From an uncultured archaeon (GTDB lineage: Archaea; Asgardarchaeota; Thorarchaeia; Thorarchaeales; Thorarchaeaceae): a stretch of 64,000 bases of DNA. Below the pieces are notes generated by a model, which saw only the letters and a list, made by a program, of their open reading frames with translations, made no database searches and was not told the DNA's origin. This document shows positions 26,199 through 63,573 of the stretch, piece by piece. The stretch lies in assembly GCA_964590575.1 (NCBI GenBank), contig CAZPWM010000004.1, positions 275-64,274 on the forward strand. The letters are read 5' to 3'. Made by a program: the position numbers and the translations under genes. Every line of letters starts with the position of its first letter. Position 1 is the first letter of the stretch.

Positions 26199-27194
26199 TT
26201 GGAACTGGAACGTGTTCTTACTAAACTGAAGTTTGATGAATCAGTTAGTGGGTATGCTCTTATCACCAGTGATGGTCAACCCTTCTTGTCGTTTTCATTG
26301 CCAGATGAGGTACTACCTCAAATCAGAGGGACCCTACGAATCCATGGAAAGGATATGAAACTCGTTAACACCATGACCAGTAAAGGAACTGTTATCCTGG
26401 CAAGAGTTGACCCACGATGGGTACTCGCTGTTCTATTCGAGCCTGAGTTCCAGCTTGGTGGTGCTCTCTCAAGGACTAAGGCTGTTGTTGATCTTCTTGT
26501 GCAGGTCGACCTACCTCCTCCCCCAGCTACCATAGCATTGGAAGATGAGGTGACTTCTTTGGTTGAGGATGAACCGATATCTGAACTAGAGTCCAGTATT
26601 CCTGATGAGTCTGAAGATGTCATCGTGGAAGAAACTGCATCTTCTCAACCAACAGAACCATTGTCAATGGAGATAATGTCCACCGACTCTATTGATGAAT
26701 CTCTTAAAGAACAAGTCCAAGTAAGACATGGTTGTGTAGTGCATCGAGGCGAGAACTACAATGACTCCATGACCTTGGACTCGAAGCTCAATGTTACGCT
26801 AAAGAGGGAGTTTGCCAATATTGGCATTGATATCCTTCTAGTTGTCGACGAGAAGATGACCGTCTACAAACTTGCTGAACACTTAGCTAGACCTGTAGAG
26901 AAAGTCATTATGATTGTGGCTTGGTGTGTTTCGCATGATATTCTTTGGATTGAATGTCCTGAGGAACAAGAACCTAGCCAAAAGGCGATTATAGAGCTGC
27001 CTTTGTTTGAGGGGGACCTCAACAAGGCTAAGAAACAACATCGGGCTATACTCGAGTTGTGCAACGGAAAGAGGACATTGCAGGAAATTGCTACTGAACT
27101 TGGAATACTCTATTTCGATGCGTTGCAATGCATAATTCCATACCGCGGAAAAACGGTTAAGTTCATACGCACAGATAAATTGTCAAGATATTGA
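26199..27194 (+). CDS. Roadblock/LC7-domain fusion protein, paralog A: N-terminal Roadblock, PPPP plus acidic linker, C-terminal domain with a CPxFEGD / GxRTxxEIA motif
   Basis: N-terminus LERVLTKLKFDESVSGYALITSDGQPFLSF is a Roadblock/MglB-like start; same architecture as 29058-30065; TTG start. Confidence 0.6.
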   Translation: MELERVLTKLKFDESVSGYALITSDGQPFLSFSLPDEVLPQIRGTLRIHGKDMKLVNTMTSKGTVILARVDPRWVLAVLFEPEFQLGGALSRTKAVVDLLVQVDLPPPPATIALEDEVTSLVEDEPISELESSIPDESEDVIVEETASSQPTEPLSMEIMSTDSIDESLKEQVQVRHGCVVHRGENYNDSMTLDSKLNVTLKREFANIGIDILLVVDEKMTVYKLAEHLARPVEKVIMIVAWCVSHDILWIECPEEQEPSQKAIIELPLFEGDLNKAKKQHRAILELCNGKRTLQEIATELGILYFDALQCIIPYRGKTVKFIRTDKLSRY

Positions 27195-27213
27195 TACTGG
27201 AGGAATAATAACA

Positions 27214-27717
27214 ATGGGTGTAAAGGGAAAAATAGCTTGGAATTTTATGACACCGAAAGTTTCCAAAGTCTTGTTTCAAGCAAGCTACAGAGAACTGATG
27301 AATCTTCTAATGAGCACCAGCATGAGTGTTGATGAAATAAATAGGAAGATGAAAGACATAGGCTTCAGGGTCGGAGAAACCCTGCTTATGGACTATGCTG
27401 ATAGGATCAGAGAACATGCTGGACAATTCCATGAGTTCGCGAATACTTTACAACTTGCATACAAGGTGAATTCAGGACAAACATTCACTAACATCTCGAT
27501 AAGTGAAGATAAGAGAACAATCAAGTTCACAGATGCAGACTGTCCTATATGTGCTGGTGTTCACATCACAGATATGCCTGGTTTGCAGTACTGTGTTATT
27601 GTGAGTGGTGTATTTGATGCAGTCATGAAACTGCGCGGATTCCATGCTGAAAGTTTCCAAGAGTCCTGCAGAGCGTTAGGTGAAGAAGTCTGTACTTGGA
27701 CCCTCTCACTTCGATAA
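27214..27717 (+). CDS. V4R-domain (Bet3/TRAPP-like) protein, paralog A
   Basis: C-terminal DCPICAGV...GLQYCVIVSGVFDAVM...C..LGEEVCTW matches the V4R Cys pattern; paralogous to 30089-30562. Confidence 0.6.
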   Translation: MGVKGKIAWNFMTPKVSKVLFQASYRELMNLLMSTSMSVDEINRKMKDIGFRVGETLLMDYADRIREHAGQFHEFANTLQLAYKVNSGQTFTNISISEDKRTIKFTDADCPICAGVHITDMPGLQYCVIVSGVFDAVMKLRGFHAESFQESCRALGEEVCTWTLSLR

Positions 27718-27780
27718 GTACCCATCACCTAAGCTTTGGAATTCCAACTACTCATCTGGCATAGGTATAAAACATAATAA

Positions 27781-28344
27781 TTGAAAATAGATTATAGAAC
27801 CAACTATGGAGGACCTCGATTGGGTCAAGGATTAGGCACGCTATTAGGTCTGGTCACTGCATTTGCAATAACATTCATCGTGTTGACATTCGGAGATTTG
27901 ATGCCTAATGACCTCATTGCATCAACCGTTGTATCTGACTTCCTCGTCACTGGTGAACTTGAAATACGCTTAGCTGTAGCTGGTACTATCCTATACCCTG
28001 CTCCAGCTTTTCTTGGTTCTACCAGTTTAGGCTCTCTTGTGGGTTATGGTTCAGTAGGTGCGTCTGTTCTCATGTGGCTTGCCTGGGGTACTGGCGGTCT
28101 TGTAGCTGGATTGATGACCAAGGAAATATTTCCAGGAATTCTTTCAGCAGTCTTCTCAGCAATCATTGGAGCTTTTCTCACTTGGCTTCTCTTCTTCATC
28201 ATCTCTCCAGGATTTAATGTCGTAGCCATCTTTCAACAAGGATCTCTTATAATCATGCAAGCCGCACTTGAGGGAACAATCTACCCTGTGATTGCATGTG
28301 CGATTGGCGGACTCCTAGGTAGCGCAATTACCCGAGACCGATAA
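27781..28344 (+). CDS. Gly-rich polytopic membrane protein
   Basis: Several TM segments; TTG start. Confidence 0.4.
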   Translation: MKIDYRTNYGGPRLGQGLGTLLGLVTAFAITFIVLTFGDLMPNDLIASTVVSDFLVTGELEIRLAVAGTILYPAPAFLGSTSLGSLVGYGSVGASVLMWLAWGTGGLVAGLMTKEIFPGILSAVFSAIIGAFLTWLLFFIISPGFNVVAIFQQGSLIIMQAALEGTIYPVIACAIGGLLGSAITRDR

Positions 28345-28911
28345 CTAATCTCTGCTTGAATTCAGAGTTCTACCACACTCAGAGCATATCATAGGATTGG
28401 ACTTGAAGATAGCACCACACTCGCAAACTGTTTCAATCTTAGTTGGAATTGGAGGTTCTGCCTTGCGATTGATTCTGTCTACTATCATTGCTATAGGGAG
28501 CGCAGAGGGTAGCGTGAGGATGGACAAAATCAGAGATGTAAAGAATTGAACGAGTAGGTCAAAGTTCCTACTAGCACGAATCCAGAACTCCGAGTCCAGA
28601 AAAAGTAAGGATATGAGCGCAAATACAGCATGGATAAGACCAACCCAGATTGCAGATCTAACAGAGTTCCACCCCGGTTTGGAAAACACTCCAATCACTA
28701 ATCCGATGACGATCCATGATATAATATATAGAATGATACTCATAGATGAAACTGGGTTGAACAAAGTAGACTGAAGTGCACTACTTCCTGCTAGAAGAAA
28801 CCAAATGATGTTAAACGGTTCTGGATATGTTGGTTGCGCAAGTCCATACAACATAACGATGGTCATAGATCCTATGATGACTGCTAGTAAGCTACCAACG
28901 AAGTTCCTCAT
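28345..28911 (-). CDS. Membrane protein with a C-terminal zinc ribbon
   Basis: Five TM segments plus CECG...CSECG. Confidence 0.45.
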   Translation of the reverse strand: MRNFVGSLLAVIIGSMTIVMLYGLAQPTYPEPFNIIWFLLAGSSALQSTLFNPVSSMSIILYIISWIVIGLVIGVFSKPGWNSVRSAIWVGLIHAVFALISLLFLDSEFWIRASRNFDLLVQFFTSLILSILTLPSALPIAMIVDRINRKAEPPIPTKIETVCECGAIFKSNPMICSECGRTLNSSRD

Positions 28912-29057
28912 GGTGATTCCTCAACATATGCATGTCCCTCTTAACCGTTATTGACAGGATTCAACTTACTTCACGACCACAATCCTTTTCAGACGACTTC
29001 TGAAAATGCTACATGTAGGCCAGTATTTGTCAAACCAGTGCTCGTGAGGTAAATATT

Positions 29058-30065
29058 ATGTCCAAAGATTTAGAAAGAGCTCTATCTAAATTGAGATTCG
29101 ATGATCAAGTATTGGGTTATTCACTGATGACAAAGGTTGGAAGACCCTTTGTTAGTTTTGCATTTCCAGATGAACTATTTCCACGCGTTAAGGATAGCAT
29201 TAACCTATACAAATCTGAACTGCGTCTCATGACAATCGACACTGAACGAGGACTAGTTGTCCTATCACCTGTAGATAATAACTGGATTTTGACAGTTCTA
29301 TACGTCCCAGAGCTGCAGCTTGGATTGGCCATTGCTAAAACTAAGAATGTTTTGCGATTACTAGAAGGAATTGAACTTCCTCCTCCACCTGATGAATTCG
29401 AGGAATCCTCTGAATCAAATATTCAAGTATTGGAGAGCATTGCTATCAAAGCCGCCTCTGTTGAATCTGCAACCCCCGATGTAGGTTCGCTGACTCCAGA
29501 AGTCGATATTGCTACTTCGACTCCTGCTGTGGTAATACCAACACCCCCCGTTGAGGAGTTGCCACCCCCAGATGCTTTCAATGTTCAACCAATTACCGTG
29601 CCTGAAAGAGGACCTCGGTACTCGAACGCGCTAACCTTGGACTCTGCGCTTTATTTTGAGATGAAGAACTTATACCGCAACTTTGGGTTTGATGTTCTAA
29701 TGCTTGTCAACGGAACCATAAGTGTAGAGAAGATTGCGGACTCCATGTTTCAACCAAATGAAAGAGTAATTGACCTCCTAAAGTGGGGCGCCTCAAAGGG
29801 TATCATTAATGTTCCACAGCTTGCTGCAGGCGAAGAAGTTCCTTCTAAAACAAAAGGCACAATGGGTCGCTACGTAAAATGTCCTCGATTTGAGGGTGAT
29901 TTTGGCAAAGTTGAAAGCGGCGATCAAAGTATCATCAAAATGTGCGATGGAAATCGGACAACTGAACAGATTGCTGAGTCACTGAACCTTCCTTTGCCAA
30001 AGATTGTACAGACAGTCGCGAAATATAGAAAACATGGTCTAAAGCTAATTGGAAAGACCCTCTAA
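29058..30065 (+). CDS. Roadblock/LC7-domain fusion protein, paralog B
   Basis: LERALSKLRFDDQVLGYSLMTKVGRPFVSF N-terminus; LPPPP linker; C-terminal CPRFEGDFG...CDGNRTTEQIAESL aligned to paralog A. Confidence 0.6.
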   Translation: MSKDLERALSKLRFDDQVLGYSLMTKVGRPFVSFAFPDELFPRVKDSINLYKSELRLMTIDTERGLVVLSPVDNNWILTVLYVPELQLGLAIAKTKNVLRLLEGIELPPPPDEFEESSESNIQVLESIAIKAASVESATPDVGSLTPEVDIATSTPAVVIPTPPVEELPPPDAFNVQPITVPERGPRYSNALTLDSALYFEMKNLYRNFGFDVLMLVNGTISVEKIADSMFQPNERVIDLLKWGASKGIINVPQLAAGEEVPSKTKGTMGRYVKCPRFEGDFGKVESGDQSIIKMCDGNRTTEQIAESLNLPLPKIVQTVAKYRKHGLKLIGKTL

Positions 30066-30088
30066 ATTGCCACGTAGGTGTGACAAAA

Positions 30089-30562
30089 ATGCCTAAGATA
30101 GAAAATCCACTACTTGTTAGTCTCTATTCCTATTATGTCGAGAAGGTTCTTGAGGAAACTAGCAATATCGATGAAGCAAATCAAAGATTACGAACCCTTG
30201 GAAATGAAATTGGTCAGCAGGTTTACCTCAATACAGAGATTATAGAAAAGACAAAGGATAATGTTACGACGCGTGAGGATGTAGCAAAACTAATCGAGAT
30301 TGTCTACAGAGTTCTTTTTGATAAAAAACCAAAAGATATAGACATGAAAACAGCTCGTGGCTCTGTACGAATTACCGATGACCAATGTGTCTGGTGCCAA
30401 GAAGTCAATCTTGAAGGTATGCGTGGATTCGGATACTGCGAAGTCTTCAGTGGAATTCTTGAATCTGTACTCGAGTTCAAAGGTGTCGATGCAAAAGTCT
30501 TCCAAGAATTAAGTAAAGCTACAGGCGCTGATGCATGTGTCTGGAATGTCCGTTTAGTGTAA
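30089..30562 (+). CDS. V4R-domain (Bet3/TRAPP-like) protein, paralog B
   Basis: DDQCVWCQEV...GFGYCEVFSGILESV...ACVW parallels 27214-27717. Confidence 0.6.
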   Translation: MPKIENPLLVSLYSYYVEKVLEETSNIDEANQRLRTLGNEIGQQVYLNTEIIEKTKDNVTTREDVAKLIEIVYRVLFDKKPKDIDMKTARGSVRITDDQCVWCQEVNLEGMRGFGYCEVFSGILESVLEFKGVDAKVFQELSKATGADACVWNVRLV

Positions 30563-30631
30563 CTGTATCACATACACATAAATCACTTAACTATCAACTC
30601 ACCATCAATTAGTGAAATTGAGGCTCAAGAA

Positions 30632-31186
30632 ATGTCCAAGCAAGATGATATCATTCCATGGTGGCAAGGACGACTGAAAGAACGTGATCTTATGGTTGCA
30701 TTCTTTGCCAAGACCTGGAACAAGATTGGGAATCGGATAGCTGTAATGTTCCCCGATCGAGTAAAAGACCTATACTACTCAGCTGGGCGTCTTGCAGGAC
30801 TTGAAGCACAAAGAGAATACTTCAAAATTGGAAAGCAAAAGCCTCCCGGAGACTTCAAGGGTATCATAGAGTTCATCAAGATGGCTCTTGAAACTCTGAT
30901 TGTACCTTTTGGCGACATCAGGATAGCAAAACTCTACAAGCTTTGGCTGGATGAAGAAGCGATAATCGAGATTATTGATAATCCATACGCTTCAGGCTAT
31001 GACGCTGAAGAACCTTCGTGCTTCTTCTTGAAGGGATTCATTGAGGCTGTTCTCGAGTATCTAACCGACTTCAACCGAATTGAGTATGAGAAATTGATTG
31101 TAACTGAGGATACGTGCATATCGATTGGTGCCGAAACATGCACATTTAAGATTACAATGACTTATCCTGCACGTGGCACCCCCTAA
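30632..31186 (+). CDS. Third V4R-like protein
   Basis: C-terminal SCFFLKGFIEAVLEY...TCISIGAETCTF resembles the V4R core. Confidence 0.45.
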   Translation: MSKQDDIIPWWQGRLKERDLMVAFFAKTWNKIGNRIAVMFPDRVKDLYYSAGRLAGLEAQREYFKIGKQKPPGDFKGIIEFIKMALETLIVPFGDIRIAKLYKLWLDEEAIIEIIDNPYASGYDAEEPSCFFLKGFIEAVLEYLTDFNRIEYEKLIVTEDTCISIGAETCTFKITMTYPARGTP

Positions 31187-31257: not shown

Positions 31258-32073
31258 ATGAATAGACGTTTCACCAAACATATCCTAGTAGGACTTTCAC
31301 TGATCCTCCTTTCATGGGGCATTCTAGGTGTAGTTCTATCTGGTGTCAGTTTTGGTGGTGTTGAGCCTATGGCTCAGGATCTGTCGCCTTCTATTAATAG
31401 TGAAGATGGTTTTGTACACCTCAAGGCATTATCAATGTGGATTGGAAGTGCCACAAGTAATGAGAATCTAACAATGGATGCTGTACCATTCTCCTGGAAT
31501 TCGGGCGGCACAAACATAGCTTGGTCTGATGCGCTCTTCGCTGCGATTGATATTGGTTTCTTTGCATTTGCGATTGGAACAGTATCTATTGACAAGAGAG
31601 ACGACCGCAGACTGCAGAAGCTGCGAGATAGAATCCTTGACGAAGTCGCGGCCAACCCCGGCATCCATCTTCGCGAGCTTCATCGAATCATTGGATGTGC
31701 TATGGGTGCTCTCCAGTATCACCTTCGATTTCTAGAAGATGATGGGTCTGTCATTTCTCTCAGAAACGGTAACGTTAGACACATATTCTCACCGGACTAC
31801 TCATCTGATGAGAAGGTTATGTTGTTGACTGCACTAGCTAGGAACCCGACTGTTGGTTCCATTCTTGGAGAGTGTGCAGCTAACGGTCAAACAACTCAGG
31901 CAATCATCAGCAGGACATTAGATGTAGACAAGAGTCTCGTCTCCTATTACATCAGTAGTCTACTTGAGGCTGATATCCTCCGTTCAGTAAAGGTGTTTGG
32001 TAGAGAGAAGCCCGTCCTACTCACCGATTGGGCCCGTACAGCTATAGATTGTCAAGGCATTTTGATACAATAA
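31258..32073 (+). CDS. Membrane-anchored protein with two winged-helix DNA-binding-like domains
   Basis: N-terminal TM (ILVGLSLILLSWGILGVVL) plus two wHTH-like segments (IHLRELHRIIG..., SILGECAANGQTTQAIISRTL...). Confidence 0.5.
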   Translation: MNRRFTKHILVGLSLILLSWGILGVVLSGVSFGGVEPMAQDLSPSINSEDGFVHLKALSMWIGSATSNENLTMDAVPFSWNSGGTNIAWSDALFAAIDIGFFAFAIGTVSIDKRDDRRLQKLRDRILDEVAANPGIHLRELHRIIGCAMGALQYHLRFLEDDGSVISLRNGNVRHIFSPDYSSDEKVMLLTALARNPTVGSILGECAANGQTTQAIISRTLDVDKSLVSYYISSLLEADILRSVKVFGREKPVLLTDWARTAIDCQGILIQ

Positions 32074-32136
32074 TTGTTCGACCCTCATGCTTATCTTGGG
32101 TTGATATTCATTCGCCTTTATCCGAGGTAGTACAAT

Positions 32137-32889
32137 ATGGCTGATGACGATTACCTTGACGCAATTGATTATACGCGAGACGACTTAGATATAGACGATC
32201 TCGAAGAGGTTAAACATGCAGTTCGGCTCCAAGATGTCCATAGGACCTATAAACTGGATAAGAACGAGATTGGAGCTGTCATCGGAGTAAACCTCACTGT
32301 CGATACTGGTGAGTTTGTTGTCATCTCAGGTAAATCAGGCTCTGGAAAAACAACACTCCTGAATATAATCGGGGCAATTGATTTGGCAACTCGAGGACGT
32401 GTATTCCTAATGGATGTTCCAATCAATGATTATGACGAATCATTCAGAGCATCTTTCAGACTCAATAATACCGGCTTCATTTTTCAGAGTTACAACCTCG
32501 TTTCGACCTTAACTGCAATTGAGAATGTACTGTTTCCAATGCAACTCTCTGAAAAGAAGCAATCCGAATTGAGAGATGAAGCTATGAAGCTTCTCGAGAC
32601 TGTTAAAATGGATCATCGGGCTGATCATCTTCCTTGGCAACTCAGCTCTGGAGAACAACAACGAATTGCAATTGCTAGAGCAATGGCAAATGACCCTCCA
32701 ATCATACTCGCAGATGAGCCTACTGCAAACCTTGATGGAGATAGTGGACAGATGATACGTGATCTGCTAATTGATTTGAACAAACAGGGAAAAGTAGTGA
32801 TTGTGATGACCCACGATGAGGGCATAATTAACCAACCTAATATTCAGCATTATAAAATGGAGTCTGGAGTGCTAACGCGTTATGCCTGA
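32137..32889 (+). CDS. ABC transporter ATP-binding protein (MacB/LolD type)
   Basis: Walker A GKSGSGKTT, signature LSSGEQQR, Walker B ILADEPT. Confidence 0.8.
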   Translation: MADDDYLDAIDYTRDDLDIDDLEEVKHAVRLQDVHRTYKLDKNEIGAVIGVNLTVDTGEFVVISGKSGSGKTTLLNIIGAIDLATRGRVFLMDVPINDYDESFRASFRLNNTGFIFQSYNLVSTLTAIENVLFPMQLSEKKQSELRDEAMKLLETVKMDHRADHLPWQLSSGEQQRIAIARAMANDPPIILADEPTANLDGDSGQMIRDLLIDLNKQGKVVIVMTHDEGIINQPNIQHYKMESGVLTRYA

Positions 32890-34735
32890 CCATCAGATGT
32901 TTGCATCAAGGGACCTCAAGAGACGCCCATTCAGGACTACTCTCACACTGATTTCATTGACGAGTGTTGTCGCTGCTACTACATTCGTATTCCTATTTGG
33001 CAATGTTCTCCTTGATGTGTCATCCTTAGCTGTATCAAGCGCTTTGTCTTCATCTTTTGGTATGTTCTTCTCGACTTTCGTATGGACAATACTTCTATTG
33101 GTGTTTATACTTGGTATTGTTGTAGTTTCCACAACTATATCGCTAGAGATGGTGACCCGCCGTCGTGATATTGGTTTAATGAAATCAATTGGCACATTGC
33201 TGGACACAATCTTCGACTTTTTCATGGCACAGTCGGTAATCTTACTACTTGCAAGTATTATTCTTGGCCTAGCCGCTGGTACAATTATCTATATGATGGG
33301 TATGATATGGCTTAGTTCCATTATCCCAAATCTACAGTTTACAAATACCTTTCCTGTTCTTCAACTATCAGTCCTTGCAATAATCCTCACAATAGCTGGA
33401 TACCTGTCTGCTCAGAAACCAATATACGACACCGTTCAGGAGTTTCCCTCTCTTTCACTGAATCCTGATGTGGGCACGAAAGTCCGTGTTGCAGGCTTCC
33501 TAGATAGTTTTGGTCTATCCTTTCGTATTGCCACTAAAGGAACTGGTAGAAGACTAAAAGGGACCAGAAGAACTGTAATTTCTCTTTTTCTAAGTTTTAC
33601 TATCGCATCCATCCTCTGGATTGGAGGCGGTGTGGTTCATACCACCTCAAATGCTTATGTAACGCGCTCGATGGGGACAAACATAATCGCAGTAGGAACC
33701 CCCGATCTCTTGGATTCATACTATGACTCGTATTCACTCTATGGTTCTCCTCTCAATACCTCCTTTAATTTTCTAGATGTTGCAGATATGATTCCTGCTC
33801 CGTTAGTTGGAAATCTTACGAGTATTCTCGGAGTTACTAATGTCGAATCACGTCTGGTCATATATTCTGAAGTGCGGGAAGAACCGGGCATTATTTGGAA
33901 TGAGGAGTTTGAACATTACGAGTACATCGGTTTAGATCGCATATCTTCTGCTGTACTTGTCGGTGTAAACTGGGATAACACCATTTCTGACTGGTACTAT
34001 GAAGGTCGTATGATTGATAATATCAATCAGGTATGGATTGGTGGGAGGATGGCAAGTGACCTCTTCGAGGATCCATTCGTGCAGAAGCTGGGTGTACAAG
34101 GAGCAGTACTTGAGATCAAAGGGCAGGCTTTTGATATCTTGAATGGTGGGATGATGGCCATAATGGAGCTCTCCCAATTACAGAGCTACTACGGTGTTTC
34201 TGGAACTAATCTGGTTCTTGTTCAGCTCGATGAATACGACGACTCACTTATCTCGCAAATTGACACACTTGCAGAAAGTTATGGATTTGACACCTTCAGA
34301 CAACAAGATGTGTTAGAAAATAACATTGAAACAATCGATGCAATCTGGACCCTACTGAATCCAATAGTGATCGTGACACTCTTGAGTGCGTTTCTGAGTT
34401 TAATGAACTATCTACTTGTTTCTATATTTGGACGTTTGAATGACTATATCATCATGAGGTCTGTAGGAGCAAAACCCTCTTTCTTAGCAAAGGTAATGAT
34501 TGCTGAGGGGTTGGATGTGGGATTGAGAGCTGGCATTCCAGCAATAATAGTTGGTACTCTACTCAGTATTTATTCATTGATACCTGAAGCCGCTGTTTCC
34601 TCATTGGCATATCTTCCTGTATCAATTATAGCAATGTTGGTCGCTATGATTGTAGTCATAGTACTAGCATCGATACCTACGTACATCTTCTTTGCCACAA
34701 GGAATGATTTGAGAGTATCAGAGTTCTCATCTTGA
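32882..34735 (+). CDS. ABC transporter permease (FtsX/MacB-like, large extracytoplasmic domain)
   Basis: Two FtsX-like 4-TM modules separated by a roughly 230-aa soluble domain; 8-nt overlap with the ATPase gene. Confidence 0.7.
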   Translation: MPDHQMFASRDLKRRPFRTTLTLISLTSVVAATTFVFLFGNVLLDVSSLAVSSALSSSFGMFFSTFVWTILLLVFILGIVVVSTTISLEMVTRRRDIGLMKSIGTLLDTIFDFFMAQSVILLLASIILGLAAGTIIYMMGMIWLSSIIPNLQFTNTFPVLQLSVLAIILTIAGYLSAQKPIYDTVQEFPSLSLNPDVGTKVRVAGFLDSFGLSFRIATKGTGRRLKGTRRTVISLFLSFTIASILWIGGGVVHTTSNAYVTRSMGTNIIAVGTPDLLDSYYDSYSLYGSPLNTSFNFLDVADMIPAPLVGNLTSILGVTNVESRLVIYSEVREEPGIIWNEEFEHYEYIGLDRISSAVLVGVNWDNTISDWYYEGRMIDNINQVWIGGRMASDLFEDPFVQKLGVQGAVLEIKGQAFDILNGGMMAIMELSQLQSYYGVSGTNLVLVQLDEYDDSLISQIDTLAESYGFDTFRQQDVLENNIETIDAIWTLLNPIVIVTLLSAFLSLMNYLLVSIFGRLNDYIIMRSVGAKPSFLAKVMIAEGLDVGLRAGIPAIIVGTLLSIYSLIPEAAVSSLAYLPVSIIAMLVAMIVVIVLASIPTYIFFATRNDLRVSEFSS

Positions 34736-47043: not shown

Positions 47044-47301
47044 AGATAATCCCTCACGGCAGGTGTTAACCGGGTAATACCGAATATAAGTCGATACCAC
47101 GTTTCATTGGGTCGGCGCCAACGTCTCTGGATATGTTGAACGCGACTTTCACTCTAGGGCATTCGGCCCATAAAAGGCTAAATATGCTGAAACCATCTTC
47201 GAATAAGGAAACATACGGGTGGAAGCAAATTTGCATCCCCTATGTGATTCTCTATTACCGAGCAGAAAGGTGAGTACTTGAGTAGCGGTGGCTTTGACTA
47301 C

Positions 47302-47820
47302 ATGCGTAAGGTCGTCATGATTGGCGCAGGTGGCAGTGGAAAGACTGCCTTAGTCAACCGTTTTCTCACCCACAAGTTCTCTGAAGAATATATAGTAACA
47401 ATCGGATCACAATTTGCTGTCAAAACTGTAGAACTAGAAACTGCAAATGGTCGCAATGTGGTTGTGAAGCTTCTTGTGTGGGACCTAGCTGGTCAACAAC
47501 GGTTCGATTTTATTCGTGGAAGCTATTATCGCGGTTCCAAAGGTGCACTGCTTGTTTTTGACACGACGCGAAAGAGCACATGGTTGGAATTGCCAAAATG
47601 GATCAAGGAAACCGAAGATGCGCTAGGAGAGCGAATTCCTATTATTCTCCTTGCAAACAAGGTAGACCTAGCTGAACACAGAGTGATCACTCGTGAGATG
47701 GGCGAACAATTCGTTCGCGATAATAATCTCACAGGTTATCTTGAAACGAGTGCATTGTCAGGCCAGAACGTCGAAGAAGCATTCAGGGTGCTTGCCAAGA
47801 GTTCGATGGCAAATTCCTAA
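47302..47820 (+). CDS. Rab-like small GTPase (Ras superfamily)
   Basis: G1 GAGGSGKT, switch I T, G3 WDLAGQQRF, G4 NKVD, G5 ETSAL; no CAAX. Confidence 0.75.
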   Translation: MRKVVMIGAGGSGKTALVNRFLTHKFSEEYIVTIGSQFAVKTVELETANGRNVVVKLLVWDLAGQQRFDFIRGSYYRGSKGALLVFDTTRKSTWLELPKWIKETEDALGERIPIILLANKVDLAEHRVITREMGEQFVRDNNLTGYLETSALSGQNVEEAFRVLAKSSMANS

Positions 47821-55904: not shown

Positions 55905-56200
55905 GTCGCATGGTTTCCCCCGTCAAGGAACTCGCGTGTTAACACGGTCCCAAAGTGAGTTCTGGTCCCTATTGCCTGTTACTAGGCAAATCTTGCGCAT
56001 GTAATTTTTAACCATGCATCCTGTTAGGAAGAGCTCCACGGATGCGGAAGGTTCGCCTTGGCGGACCAGCCGCTCCAACCTTATTCACGCTGAGGGCATT
56101 AATAGACACACGGAATATCAAAATATACACACAGAACATCTTAATCTACAACCAAAAAATAACTTGCAGACTAAGAGGCTTCAAAAAACCAGGCCTCTCG
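55905..56200 (+). ncRNA. Candidate structured RNA (unassigned) in a GC-rich segment upstream of, or overlapping, the annotated GTPase 5' end
   Basis: Long-range pairing GCATGGTT (55908-15) with AACCATGC (56010-17); local hairpins CGTGTTAACACG (55935-46), GCCTGTTACTAGGC, CGCCTTGGCG (56055-64), AGAGGC-(13)-GCCTCT (56174-98); the region is GC-rich against AT-rich flanks and its translation is Arg/Ser/Pro-rich. Confidence 0.25.
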
Positions 56201-56202
56201 GT

Positions 56203-58014
56203 TTGATTGAACCTGGTGATATCGAAGTGATTCACAACACCTTCCTTGTTCGCATATCCAACCGGCAAATAATTGCATCTACCCAGTATTGGCCAGTTGA
56301 GGTGAGAAACGAAGCACTGAATGAATTCATCTCCACAAGAGAGGATCTCAGAACAGAACATGGCCAGGTGTCAGAACTACCTCTGATTATTGGGGATCAC
56401 AAATTCCTAGGAAAAGACTGGATTGAGGATTCAGTTCTTGTTTTCGTTACCGACAAGGGTGAGGATGAAAGCAATACCTATGAAAAGATAGACTTGGCTT
56501 TGAAAGCTCTTAGAACGACTTTCAAAAAGAAAGGGATTGAAGGAGCAATCAAGAATTATAGCAATCTTATCGAACCTTCTATTACAACTAGACTCAAGAT
56601 TGCTCTGGTCGGAGAAGGTGGTGTTGGGAAAACAACTACCTTGCATCTCCTCTTAGGTGATACGCCACCTCTACAGTATGTTCCAACAATAGCGTTGAAT
56701 TTAGAAACAGTTGAGAACATTCGCTTTGGCAACTACTCTCTGGTTCTATGGGACTTTGCTGGACAGGAACGGTTTCGAACTTTGTGGCGGTTCTACTTCC
56801 ATGGTGCAGATGTTATTTTCCTCGTGTGTGACTCCACTTTAAGGAACGTCATCATAAGCAAAGATATTCTCAAACTAATCAAACGAGATGCACCAAAGGT
56901 GCCTATATTTGCATTAGCAAATAAGCAGGATAAACCAAATGCTATGAAACCTGAAGTTGTTCAGAAGATTCTAGGGATTCCTACATATTCTATGGTGGCT
57001 ATCGACAAAGACCGTCGCGACGAAATGTTACGTATTCTTATGACTGCAGCTGCGCAGTACGTTGGCGTGGCTCTCCCAGACCTTCCTGCCGCAGAGCTAC
57101 TGAAATTCACAGACGCAGCCACTAAAGAAGCAATTGCAGAAGCAGATGCCATAGAGGTTAAGGCAATCGAAGAGGAAGAGATCGAGGAAGAAGAAGAGAT
57201 TGAAGAAGAACTTGAGGATGAAGAGTACGAAGAAGTAATTGAAGAAATCTTTGTTGATGAAGAAGGTCACGTGATTGAAAATCTCGATGAGTATGAGATT
57301 GTTGAAGAAGATGCAGATGAATCCATAGCGGTACCTACTGCAGCGGATGAAGTTGAGATAGAGGTTGAATCTCCGGAAGCGTTTGATATCCCTACAGTGG
57401 ATGATGCAGAGATTATAGAAGAGGTAGAAATTGAAATAGAGTCAGAACCTGAGCCAATTGAAGAATTCATTGAAGATGTTGTAAAGGAACCTATTGAGGC
57501 TTTTGAGGCGATTGCAGAAGAAGGTCCTGTGATCGAAGTGGTTACTAAAGATGAGCCAGAATCTGAACCTGTTGGAGCAGAGACTGAGACAGCTGAAGCG
57601 ACATATTTCGATTCTGGACCTGTATTAATAATAGAAGAGAATACTGACGCAATGAAGATGGCTAAGGATATCATCTTTGAGGCTCTTGAAACAGATGATA
57701 TTGATGATATTATTGCAACTGAGATTGAACAAGCCTCTGACGAAGAGATAGATACTGCTCTTCAGGCGATTGGGAGCGACGAAACAATCCCACTTGAAAA
57801 TGAACTTGTAGAGACTGAAGAGATTGATGCTGAATCGCTAATCGAACTTGAAAAATTTCTAGGTCCCTTGGATCGGCCCATTGGTGGTACTGGAATTGTA
57901 AAAACAGATGAAGATGATGAAGAAAACGACTCTTATCTCCCACTCAACGGTGAAACCCTTGCTGAGCTTGACCGTCTGTTCGATGCAAGTCAGGAAGACG
58001 GCGATTCAGACTGA
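56203..58014 (+). CDS. Arf/Arl-like small GTPase with an N-terminal Roadblock-like domain and a roughly 330-aa acidic low-complexity tail
   Basis: G1 GEGGVGKTT, Arf-type WDFAGQERFRTLWRFYF, NKQD; the C-terminus is made of E/D/I-rich repeats; start uncertain (the TTG at 56203 is chosen, the track ATG at 56014 is probably non-coding). Confidence 0.6.
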   Translation: MIEPGDIEVIHNTFLVRISNRQIIASTQYWPVEVRNEALNEFISTREDLRTEHGQVSELPLIIGDHKFLGKDWIEDSVLVFVTDKGEDESNTYEKIDLALKALRTTFKKKGIEGAIKNYSNLIEPSITTRLKIALVGEGGVGKTTTLHLLLGDTPPLQYVPTIALNLETVENIRFGNYSLVLWDFAGQERFRTLWRFYFHGADVIFLVCDSTLRNVIISKDILKLIKRDAPKVPIFALANKQDKPNAMKPEVVQKILGIPTYSMVAIDKDRRDEMLRILMTAAAQYVGVALPDLPAAELLKFTDAATKEAIAEADAIEVKAIEEEEIEEEEEIEEELEDEEYEEVIEEIFVDEEGHVIENLDEYEIVEEDADESIAVPTAADEVEIEVESPEAFDIPTVDDAEIIEEVEIEIESEPEPIEEFIEDVVKEPIEAFEAIAEEGPVIEVVTKDEPESEPVGAETETAEATYFDSGPVLIIEENTDAMKMAKDIIFEALETDDIDDIIATEIEQASDEEIDTALQAIGSDETIPLENELVETEEIDAESLIELEKFLGPLDRPIGGTGIVKTDEDDEENDSYLPLNGETLAELDRLFDASQEDGDSD

Positions 58015-62739: not shown

Positions 62740-63573
62740 ATGAAGATTGTCGTTACTGGTCCCTATGAATCTGGTAAGAGCCTGATGATTCATCATATCA
62801 CAAACGGTGCATGCATCAATGTTGAACGTAGGGGAACTACAATTGCGATGGACCATGGCTTAGCTAATGTAGATGGAATGAGCGTCTTCATGTTCGGAAC
62901 TCCTGGACTCCTTCGCTTTCGTACGATGCGGAAGATTCTCAGTGAAGGCGCAGATGGAATCGTCTTTGTCGTTGATTCAGTTGATCCAGAATCTGACGCT
63001 CGTGCAAAGTTGTTTTTCAGAGAGATTGCATTCTTCTTACCTGGAGTGCCCTGTGTAGTTGCAGCGAATAAACAGGACCTTCCGGAAGCCCGACCCATCG
63101 ATCATCTTCGGAAGAATCTTAGATTTCTAGCTGGTCTCCCAGTGTTTCCTGTTTCAGCCAAAACTGGAGAAAATGTTGACAGTATGCTCCGGACACTTCT
63201 GTATCTTGTTATGATGCAATGGAGTTCTGTCTTTAGAAAATTTGCTGAGCATAGTGGAGATAAGAAAGGGCTTAGTAAAATGATGAAAGACCTGAATATT
63301 GAACGCGAACAAGCAGTAGGTTATCTGCGCCGGTTTGAGCTGAGGAAGCTACTAGAAGTCCAAGTGGGCGACGAGCAGTTCGTCGTCAAAGACTCTGTGC
63401 AACCGCTTCTCGAGAATCCCGTCTTACTTATGCGTCGGTTGTTTGAATTTCATCTTTATTTCATCAACGCGCTCTTTCTAGATGTTTTAATATCGCATCC
63501 AATGTCGTTCAGAAAGAATCAAAAGCGATATAGCCCGCCAACGTTGATGTTTTCAGGTGAGTCAAATGAGTGA
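62740..63573 (+). CDS. MglA-like small GTPase with a roughly 110-aa C-terminal extension
   Basis: GPYESGKS (compare MglA GPGLCGKT), FGTPG (compare TVPGQ), GADGIVFVVDS, NKQDLP. Confidence 0.65.
   Translation: MKIVVTGPYESGKSLMIHHITNGACINVERRGTTIAMDHGLANVDGMSVFMFGTPGLLRFRTMRKILSEGADGIVFVVDSVDPESDARAKLFFREIAFFLPGVPCVVAANKQDLPEARPIDHLRKNLRFLAGLPVFPVSAKTGENVDSMLRTLLYLVMMQWSSVFRKFAEHSGDKKGLSKMMKDLNIEREQAVGYLRRFELRKLLEVQVGDEQFVVKDSVQPLLENPVLLMRRLFEFHLYFINALFLDVLISHPMSFRKNQKRYSPPTLMFSGESNE

Follow-up and report, generated by a model that had tools for sequence, protein, structure and literature searches.

What do two paralogous Roadblock-containing genes and their Bet3-like neighbors do in a Thorarchaeota genome, and do their products act together? 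The question is raised by a locus in a 64,000-nucleotide stretch of contig CAZPWM010000004.1 from an uncultured archaeon of the Thorarchaeaceae, a stretch that we call the window. The + strand carries two paralogous two-gene units there, F1-T1 (26199-27717) and F2-T2 (29058-30562), and a further gene, V3, follows the second unit. We assigned folds to F1, F2, T1, T2 and V3 and analyzed the linkage of their genes and the co-variation of F2, T2 and V3. What is new is a conserved gene-cluster association of known Asgard eukaryote-like families. NPRL2/NPRL3 are nutrient-sensing proteins of eukaryotes and TRAPPC3/Bet3 is a vesicle-tethering one; the pairing of NPRL2-like with TRAPPC3-like genes suggests that known eukaryote-like proteins work as one complex. 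We predict that the locus encodes a Thorarchaeota-specific multi-subunit regulatory complex that senses a ligand and acts on a small GTPase, and we put the probability of this reading at roughly 0.4. Of the readings considered, a small-GTPase regulator that senses a ligand has the best support, and a split transcription factor is a serious rival to it.

The genes and other elements to which the text refers are the following (aa, amino acids).

F1, 26199-27194, + strand: predicted NPRL2/3-like protein of 331 aa, with a Roadblock N-domain (about residues 1-104), LPPPP plus an acidic disordered linker, and a tandem winged-helix C-domain.

T1, 27214-27717, + strand: TRAPPC3/Bet3-like Zn-binding protein of 167 aa, a divergent T2 paralogue.

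TMa, 27781-28344, + strand: polytopic membrane protein.

TMb, 28345-28911, - strand: membrane protein with about four transmembrane segments and a C-terminal CxC...CxxC zinc ribbon, divergent from F2.

Palindrome, 28986-29006, no strand: candidate operator in the TMb/F2 divergent promoter region.

F2, 29058-30065, + strand: predicted NPRL2/3-like protein of 335 aa, with a Roadblock N-domain (1-106), a linker (114-166) and a C-domain (170-335).

T2, 30080-30562, + strand: 160 aa when read from GTG, the Thor-TRAPPC3 orthologue.

V3, 30632-31186, + strand: stand-alone V4R-domain protein of 184 aa, third gene of the F-T-V triad.

MglA-like GTPase, 62740-63573, + strand: GTPase with a C-terminal extension; a TPR protein comes next (63548 to the window end).

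The original prediction described two units, each a Roadblock fusion plus a V4R protein, with two membrane-protein genes between them and a third V4R gene at 30632. All of this was borne out. The five cassette open reading frames (ORFs) were confirmed in the ORF listing of the window, all on the + strand and at the coordinates given originally; F1 can be aligned with F2 over the full length (33% identity, E 4e-64), T1 is likewise a paralogue of T2 (23% identity, E 7e-25), and TMa and TMb lie between the units. V3 passes Pfam V4R (PF02830; 34.3 bits against a cut-off of 31) and is related to T1/T2 only remotely (E 0.05). In the window, gaps of 19 nt (F1-T1), 14 or 23 nt (F2-T2) and 69 nt (T2-V3) separate the genes, and Shine-Dalgarno-like GGAGG or GGTG motifs stand about 10 nt before the internal start codons of the cassette, GGAGG being the one ahead of T1. 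T2 probably starts at the ATG at 30089 (MPKIEN..., 157 aa) and not at the GTG at 30080, because 157-aa calls in other genomes and the crystallized construct agree on that start; choosing it leaves GGTG about 10 nt upstream. Base composition is uniform over the whole window and therefore gives no sign of a recently acquired island.

What kind of proteins are F1 and F2? Motif calls and the AlphaFold2 model of F2 were based on an alignment of 32 sequences that covers both paralogue families. The N-domain of the model (residues 1-105, predicted local distance difference test [pLDDT] about 88) has its elements in the order alpha-beta-beta-alpha-beta-beta-beta-alpha. An LPPPP motif that is invariant in the alignment precedes an acidic disordered linker (114-166, net charge about -13), and a confident C-terminal domain (170-335) comprises two winged-helix-like modules. 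When the N-domain was compared with the PDB by Foldseek, it matched Roadblock proteins with a probability of 1.0 and target-normalized template-modeling scores of 0.62-0.73. The matched structures included Thor-RB 7F8M, 9JUE, the MK-D1 Roadblocks, LAMTOR2, MglB and the Streptomyces Roadblock/LC7 structures 3KYE and 3LEQ. Together, the confidence of the model and the Foldseek probability support the Roadblock fold that had been assigned to these domains from the start, and as modeled, the N-domains of F1 and F2 adopt it. At the gathering score of Pfam Robl_LC7 (PF03259) there was no match to F1 or F2, and five of the 32 family members matched weakly (E 0.085 or worse); JGI annotation names some F1 orthologues COG Roadblock/LC7/MglB. 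The motifs noted earlier held in part. LPPPP is invariant and C-[DN]-G-x-[RKQ]-[TS] ... I-A is conserved across the alignment, and so is P-x-[FY]-[EDQ]-G, but the Cys of 'CPxFEGD' is restricted to the F2 lineage.

The two paralogues also differ at two places of possible functional interest. The beta1-beta2 loop of the F2 Roadblock domain (residues 28-30, window 29139-29147) reads G28-R29-P30. G28-x-P30 is invariant in this loop ahead of beta2, and Arg29 is present in 68 of 69 F2 orthologues, with Q or H in F1. G-x-P is common at this position in Roadblock domains generally. The longin domain of NPRL2 carries an arginine finger, Arg78, and the adjoining GP motif of eukaryotic longin GTPase-activating proteins (GAPs) (PMC12290439). 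Arg in F2 against Q/H in F1, in a loop that resembles the GP motif, is an asymmetry that may recall a catalytic and a non-catalytic partner. The second difference lies in the winged-helix C-domain, where the F1 lineage has four near-invariant cysteines (C179, C243, C253 and C288, in 60-64 of 64 sequences) and F2 retains just two. H177 and H281 are also found in this part of F1 (residues 177-288). The set could be an F1-specific metal or redox site.

The original prediction had given motifs, but no family, for the C-terminal domain. This needs correction, as Foldseek returned an Npr2/NPRL2-type tandem winged helix. The top PDB matches of the full F2 model were NPRL2/Npr2 chains in the GATOR1 and SEA complexes (E 2.7e-7). 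These alignments are full-length (about 365-390 columns), yet helix placement in the F2 N-domain is that of Roadblock rather than longin. The contribution of the C-domain was checked with a separate model of F2 residues 168-335 (pLDDT 79.6), for which Npr2/NPRL2 made up all of the top five matches, in whole-domain alignments with probabilities of 0.90-0.94. An NPRL2/3-type C-domain was ranked first by two methods on two models. As modeled, two winged helices in tandem make up the C-domain of F, the Npr2/NPRL2/NPRL3 C-domain is their best structural match, and it is this match that gives the 'fusion' the architecture of a GATOR1 subunit. At the level of fold, F1 and F2 are thus predicted to be built like NPRL2/NPRL3, with a domain of the Roadblock/longin superfamily joined to a C-terminal winged-helix domain of the Npr2 type. 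Liu et al. 2020-21 (bioRxiv 10.1101/2020.10.19.343400) reported an NPRL2-like family in 'most Thor MAGs' (metagenome-assembled genomes). F1 and F2 probably are this family, to judge by matching architecture and phyletic range. As a separate observation, the 'C-[DN]-G-x-[RK]-T...I' winged-helix module is present three times in a 501-aa protein from a marine metagenome (P0262; L086, 194-1699), ahead of another C-terminal domain, and the F-type winged-helix module therefore occurs outside the Roadblock context too.

The putative partners of F1 and F2 could be assigned more firmly than had been assumed when the 160-aa proteins were described as having the V4R/Bet3 fold. T1 and T2 both pass Pfam TRAPP (PF04051), with 27.3 and 41.1 bits, respectively, against a cut-off of 27. 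The E-values of T2 against the Thor-TRAPPC3 structures are 2.3e-92 (PDB 7YH2) and 2.2e-91 (7YH3), by which T2 is identified as the orthologue of crystallized Thor-TRAPPC3. For T1, the match to 7YH3 has an E-value of 4.5e-22, and eukaryotic TRAPPC3 chains follow at 1e-5 to 4e-3. The Zn-ligand cysteines of T1, C110, C113, C127 and C160, are kept in 63 of 63 orthologues; the four of T2 are kept in 64-65 of 65. V3 has C130, C162 and C170 in all 62 orthologues and weakly matches MJ1460 (PDB 2OSD), MsvR and BchJ. Homology between V4R and Bet3 is established (Podar 2008, PMC2253512). Thor-TRAPPC3 was crystallized from Thorarchaeota AB25 and SMTZ1-45 (Tran et al. 2024, PMC10933270; PDB 7YH2/7YH3) and is a homodimer nearest to eukaryotic TRAPPC3/C6; it has cavities in its interior and a Zn site formed by four Cys. 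Based on the cavities and the Zn site, these authors consider it most likely a ligand binder; membrane targeting was not found in HeLa cells (PMC10933270).

How widely is the association kept? All named F1/F2 homologues come from Thorarchaeota MAGs, a few being labeled Promethearchaeota, Sifarchaeia, Lokiarchaeota or Hermodarchaeota, and F1 has 275 homologues. An exhaustive HMMER search over 1.84 billion cluster representatives gave 25 at E<=1e-3, which indicates that the F family is very narrow. Gene order was surveyed in 75 loci from GTDB species representatives. The order GlnA - DUF72 - L13e - PfkB - F1 - T1 - TMa - TMb(-) - F2 - T2 - V3 - HTH - ABC - FtsX - LysRS is near-invariant, and it is present in all of the approximately 60 species-level Thorarchaeota loci long enough to reveal it. 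F2 is directly followed by T2 in 63 of 63 Thorarchaeota loci (median gap 17 nt), T2 by V3 in 61 of 61 (66 nt) and F1 by T1 in 62 of 63 (16 nt), so the adjacency on which the original prediction depended is conserved.

A second arrangement (class B) was found in one lineage (L004 = L062, plus L005 and L006), where the F-T-V order is kept in entirely different flanks. Its proteins share 43% (F2), 30.5% (T2) and 49% (V3) identity with those of the window. Downstream lie TrmO, an M24 peptidase and TldD; upstream and divergent are genes for a GTPase of the MglA type, a TPR protein, a membrane-anchored protein of 1261 aa and a Roadblock protein. The F-T pair, moreover, has been duplicated as one unit. 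The class-B triad, this duplication and the co-variation described below carry more weight for a shared function than does synteny alone.

Co-variation was assessed by a mirror-tree comparison of 13 genes in 41 genomes, with the species signal regressed out via five flanking genes. The three highest residual distance correlations were T2-V3 (0.73), F2-V3 (0.61) and F2-T2 (0.58); F1-F2 gave 0.45, and all remaining pairs were at or below 0.51. Constraint on the cassette proteins is unusually strong as well. Across the 41 genomes, the median pairwise identity is 90.6% in the Roadblock domain of F2, where constraint on this protein is greatest, and 78% for V3, 73% for T1 and 69% for T2, compared with 61.5% for LysRS and 58% for L13e.

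Taken together, these results point to F2-T2-V3 as a conserved core and to F1-T1, with TMa and TMb, as a second, divergent copy, which makes a T1-F1:F2-T2(-V3) hetero-oligomer possible. How might such an assembly work? Roadblock/longin proteins generally pair, as in NPRL2-NPRL3, LAMTOR2-3 and MglB dimers. For this reason we predict that F1 and F2 would pair through their Roadblock domains and form a platform. T1, T2 and V3, Zn-stabilized and cavity-bearing, would bind this platform and sense a ligand that is small and hydrophobic or else redox-active. Once assembled, the complex may control the nucleotide state or the localization of a small GTPase, for which the MglA-like protein at 62740 is the candidate, and TMb may supply a membrane anchor. 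What we infer is that the complex forms, which GTPase it acts on and in which direction. In its most specific form, an Asgard hetero-oligomer in which an F1:F2 NPRL2/3-like pair is coupled to TRAPPC3/Bet3-like and V4R ligand sensors and regulates a small GTPase, the proposal is tentative, and we think it unlikely to hold in every part. In favor of a ligand-sensing complex in general, the cavities of Thor-TRAPPC3 are of a ligand-binding type, and longin and TRAPPC3 domains are joined in one Heimdall protein (both PMC10933270).

Which GTPase could be the client? The original prediction listed Rab-, Arf- and MglA-like GTPases in the window, and all three were found: a Ras/Rab-like protein at 47278-47820 (Pfam Ras E 5e-46), an Arf/Roc-like domain protein at 56014-58014 and the MglA-like protein at 62740-63573. 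The Rab-like gene, about 17 kb from the cassette in the window, was unlinked to it in every locus examined. The second is a 666-aa multidomain protein with a central Arf/Roc-like GTPase domain (about residues 192-330, Pfam Arf E 2e-21) and a faint Gtr1/RagA match. The third has MglA as its best PDB sequence matches, and its G3 motif, TPGL, has neither the Asp nor the catalytic Gln; the G3 motif of MglA likewise lacks the canonical Asp. It carries a C-terminal extension of about 110 aa with a helix-turn-helix (HTH)-like segment and is followed by a TPR/SNAP-like protein that is cut by the window end. It is an orthologue of the class-B GTPase (56% identity, E 5e-106); its ORF is about 40 aa longer and runs into the beginning of the TPR ORF. 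The pair of GTPase and TPR genes lies beside F-T-V in class B (L004, 7822-9618), with the GTPase gene divergent from the cassette. Genomic support for a client thus exists only for the MglA-like GTPase at 62740, and it comes from class-B adjacency in one lineage. We also observed that, on the - strand of the same locus (L004, 3315-7711), the 1261-aa protein has an N-terminal signal/transmembrane segment and a C-terminal transmembrane segment, and that a canonical Roadblock/LC7 protein of 135 aa (Pfam E 5e-12) comes next. The GTPase-TPR-1261-aa-Roadblock directon resembles a module of its own, of the MglA/MglB type and with a large surface protein.

Several results weigh against a ligand-sensing GTPase regulator built from F, T and V proteins. 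Collinearity of all class-A loci, those with the Thorarchaeota order, runs from GlnA to LysRS, housekeeping genes included, and with flanks frozen in this way synteny alone is a poor guide to function. Only one lineage provides an independent context: database searching gave class B no relatives above 47% identity, and a metagenome scan with a class-B protein re-found the known contig and no further independent context. One distant F-like protein, P0255, is without a TRAPP or V4R neighbor; two others, P0257 and P0262, sit on contigs too short to show T/V neighbors. No GTPase adjoins the cassette in any Thorarchaeota locus surveyed, and the class-B GTPase has a Roadblock gene of its own in its directon. 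The residual correlations that set F2, T2 and V3 apart (0.58-0.73) stand without a formal significance test. Finally, the likeness to NPRL2 is one of structure. The Foldseek E-values of the C-domain-alone model for Npr2/NPRL2 were only 0.012-0.033, Pfam NPR2 (PF06218) and NPR3 (PF03666) gave no match at E<=1 for F1, F2 or the 32 family members, and NPRL chains were absent from a PDB sequence-profile search with F, in which Thor-RB was the top match (E 1.4). Pfam, NCBIfam and the PDB profile search were all negative for a sequence-level link between F and NPRL2.

Could the membrane proteins and the genes downstream belong to the same system? TMa is syntenic across Thorarchaeota and missing from the class-B cassette, and it had no Pfam or NCBIfam match. 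TMb keeps its zinc-ribbon cysteines in 66 of 67 orthologues. A TMb homologue with the same ribbon (L007, 2097-2690, - strand; 25% identity over 125 aa, E 2e-7) adjoins the distant F-like gene P0257 on an unrelated short contig, a pairing that hints at an F-TMb association independent of TRAPPC3-like genes. TMa and TMb were considered as paralogues, and this was dropped, the similarity being marginal (E 0.004 over 67 residues). Directly 3' of V3, the region 31258-34735 encodes a membrane-anchored HTH_HVO_0163/MarR-like regulator and a MacB-type ABC ATPase/FtsX permease pair. These genes are syntenic in all Thorarchaeota loci, but not in the class-B context, and they co-vary mutually and with TMa and F1 (0.45-0.51), not with F2-T2-V3. 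The HTH_HVO_0163 regulator and ABC/FtsX transporter were therefore rejected as members of the system, being absent from class B and co-varying with each other.

The explanation that competes most seriously with a GTPase regulator is a split transcription factor that responds to a ligand or to redox state. The T/V proteins would sense a small molecule or thiol oxidation via Cys/Zn and pass the signal to F, and the second winged helix of F (WH2) would bind DNA, for example the palindrome upstream of F2, so controlling the cassette and perhaps the neighboring HTH/ABC-transporter genes. The model is MsvR of methanogens, in which a winged helix and a V4R domain lie in one polypeptide. Archaeal winged helices are mostly DNA-binding, and WH2 of F is basic (median pI 9.1, net charge +3). 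Subthreshold Pfam matches across the 32 F members include HTH_47 in 31, in addition to DUF742 in 16, Robl_LC7 in five, and Sigma70_r4 and TrmB. T1 and V3 have faint MsvR matches in NCBIfam (17-18 bits against a cut-off of 220), the F1 C-domain has its four near-invariant cysteines, and bacterial V4R is the ligand sensor of transcription factors such as PoxR (PMC10933270). In addition, a perfect palindrome, TTTTCAGA-N5-TCTGAAAA, stands at 28986-29006, 72 nt upstream of the F2 ATG, and may be an operator or a bidirectional promoter element. When up to one mismatch per arm is allowed, 9 of 22 loci carry it at -69 to -74, compared with a background of 0.013 per 220 nt. However, the palindrome is confined to the subgroup nearest the window. 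The complete C-domain is approximately neutral (median pI 6.9), it is tethered to the strongly acidic linker, and it most resembles the protein-binding C-domain of Npr2. Furthermore, constraint on F2 peaks in the Roadblock domain, a type of module known to bind GTPases and scaffolds. On balance we consider a split transcription factor rather unlikely, though more likely than the explanations that follow.

The original prediction proposed a proto-TRAPP. Taken strictly, T1/T2 and the F N-domains would assemble like the TRAPP core, where subunits of the Bet3 family flank those with a longin fold, and would serve as the exchange factor for a Rab-like GTPase such as that at 47278-47820. A Bet3-like protein and a Roadblock/longin-fold protein in two paralogous copies do resemble the TRAPP core in composition, a gene for a Rab-like GTPase lies 17 kb from the cassette, and T1 and T2, which pass Pfam TRAPP, match eukaryotic TRAPPC3 by sequence. 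Thor-TRAPPC3 is, in addition, structurally nearest to eukaryotic TRAPPC3/C6 (PMC10933270). Nevertheless, the topology of the F N-domain is Roadblock with an N-terminal helix and not the longin/sedlin topology of Bet5, Trs23 and Trs20, and the full architecture of F fits the GAP subunit NPRL2 and no TRAPP subunit. The Rab-like gene was never cassette-linked, the only adjoining GTPase being MglA-like, and the crystallographic study favored ligand binding and saw no membrane targeting (PMC10933270). These points make a strict proto-TRAPP exchange factor improbable; as a broader idea, a proto-TRAPP module that regulates GTPases is plausible.

Somewhat more doubtful still is a relation to the actinobacterial conservon. 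Here F would be a fused CvnB (Roadblock) and CvnC (DUF742), its partner would be a GTPase of the MglA/CvnD type, T/V3 would replace the sensor kinase CvnA, and the resemblance to NPRL2 would reflect a shared ancient combination of Roadblock and winged helix. The subthreshold DUF742 matches fall on WH2 (best E 1.3e-4), Streptomyces 3KYE and 3LEQ are among the Roadblock fold matches, and the sole GTPase found beside a cassette is MglA-like. Yet every DUF742 (PF05331) score is under the 27-bit cut-off (F1 best, 17.7 bits) and overlaps generic HTH families, no CvnA-like kinase was seen in any class-A locus or in class B, and the cassette directon contains no GTPase. Just as little credence is due to the view that there is no functional unit at all and that the genes are neighbors only through a frozen Thorarchaeota region, each protein working alone (T2, for example, as a free homodimeric ligand binder): the collinear GlnA-to-LysRS block of all class-A loci and the crystallization of a T2 orthologue as a partnerless homodimer (PMC10933270) fit it, but F-T-V survives where every flank differs, F→T gaps span only 4-36 nt across loci with Shine-Dalgarno-like motifs, F and T were duplicated together, and F2, T2 and V3 co-vary above all flanking pairs.

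What, then, would a ligand-sensing GTPase regulator at this locus mean? Asgard eukaryotic signature proteins are mostly scattered over their genomes, and Thor-TRAPPC3 has so far been studied in isolation. The locus gives it a specific set of partners: an NPRL2-like gene upstream (15-25 nt), a V4R gene downstream, a second pair and an MglA-like candidate client. If the proteins do assemble, the ancestors of two different eukaryotic families of GTPase regulators, GATOR1-type longin GAPs and the TRAPP guanine nucleotide exchange factor (GEF), would for the first time be linked by an operon, and the Bet3 fold would be tied to ligand sensing, its presumed ancestral role. It would represent a prokaryotic machine that unites building blocks later split between GATOR1 (Rag GAP) and TRAPP (Rab GEF), and Bet3-family proteins would have begun as small-molecule-sensing input subunits of Roadblock/longin GTPase regulators. 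Should the proteins not assemble, the identification of the Roadblock fusion as the putative Thor NPRL2-like family would still be useful.

The claim that such a system had not been described also needs qualification. For the linkage, no prior description of an operonic pairing of NPRL2-like with TRAPPC3-like genes was found in the literature searched. The components, on the other hand, are known from the NPRL2-like family of Liu et al. and from crystallized Thor-TRAPPC3, so novelty applies to the gene linkage only. The main text of Liu et al. never mentions TRAPP or V4R (10.1101/2020.10.19.343400), and Tran et al. do not discuss the neighborhood of Thor-TRAPPC3 and state that genome layout does not help to match small GTPases with their regulators (PMC10933270).

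How does the locus compare with systems that are already known? A first comparison is with NPRL2/NPRL3 (yeast Npr2/Npr3), the paired subunits of the GATOR1/SEACIT GAP for Rag GTPases, with which F shares a predicted fold-level architecture without sequence similarity. In contrast to these proteins, the N-domain of F begins with a helix and follows the Roadblock topology, and an acidic disordered linker replaces the structured TINI/intermediate region. The F genes also adjoin Bet3-like genes in a predicted operon, an arrangement with no counterpart in eukaryotic GATOR1, and no DEPDC5 or Rag partner is linked to them; no DEPDC5-like gene was seen in the cassette neighborhood. MglA/MglB offers a simpler parallel, as the F N-domain is a predicted Roadblock that matches MglB structures, and both the class-B neighbor GTPase and its orthologue at 62740 are MglA-like. 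MglB, however, is a single-domain protein co-transcribed with MglA, whereas F has a large C-terminal extension and adjoins V4R-superfamily genes, with no adjacent GTPase in Thorarchaeota. The conservon (CvnA-D) likewise combines Roadblock with a DUF742-like winged helix and has an MglA/CvnD-type GTPase as a possible client, but the modules are fused in F, the DUF742 matches are subthreshold, and the operon holds no sensor kinase and no GTPase.

On the side of the sensors, V3 can be set beside stand-alone archaeal V4R proteins (MJ1460) and the V4R sensor domains of PoxR and MsvR: it has the V4R domain and the conserved Cys triad, and its matches to MJ1460, MsvR and BchJ are weak. Unlike PoxR and MsvR, it is not fused to a DNA-binding or AAA+ domain and is instead the third gene of a triad; no MsvR-type single polypeptide (winged HTH plus V4R) was encountered at the locus, where the domains are on separate proteins. 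Compared with Thor-TRAPPC3, T2 is the orthologue and T1 a paralogue, and both keep the four Zn-ligand cysteines. Eukaryotic TRAPPC3 has lost the Zn site (PMC10933270). Eukaryotic TRAPPC3/Bet3 forms a hetero-oligomer with the longin-fold proteins Bet5, Trs23 and Trs20, whereas its genomic partner here is an NPRL2-like Roadblock protein. A further parallel to the F-T pair is the Heimdallarchaeial longin-TRAPPC3 fusion (MBD3190748.1, modeled by Tran et al. 2024, PMC10933270). Although it has a longin domain and no NPRL2-type winged-helix domain, it carries the two parts in one polypeptide and is in this sense a 'Rosetta-stone' counterpart of the pair.

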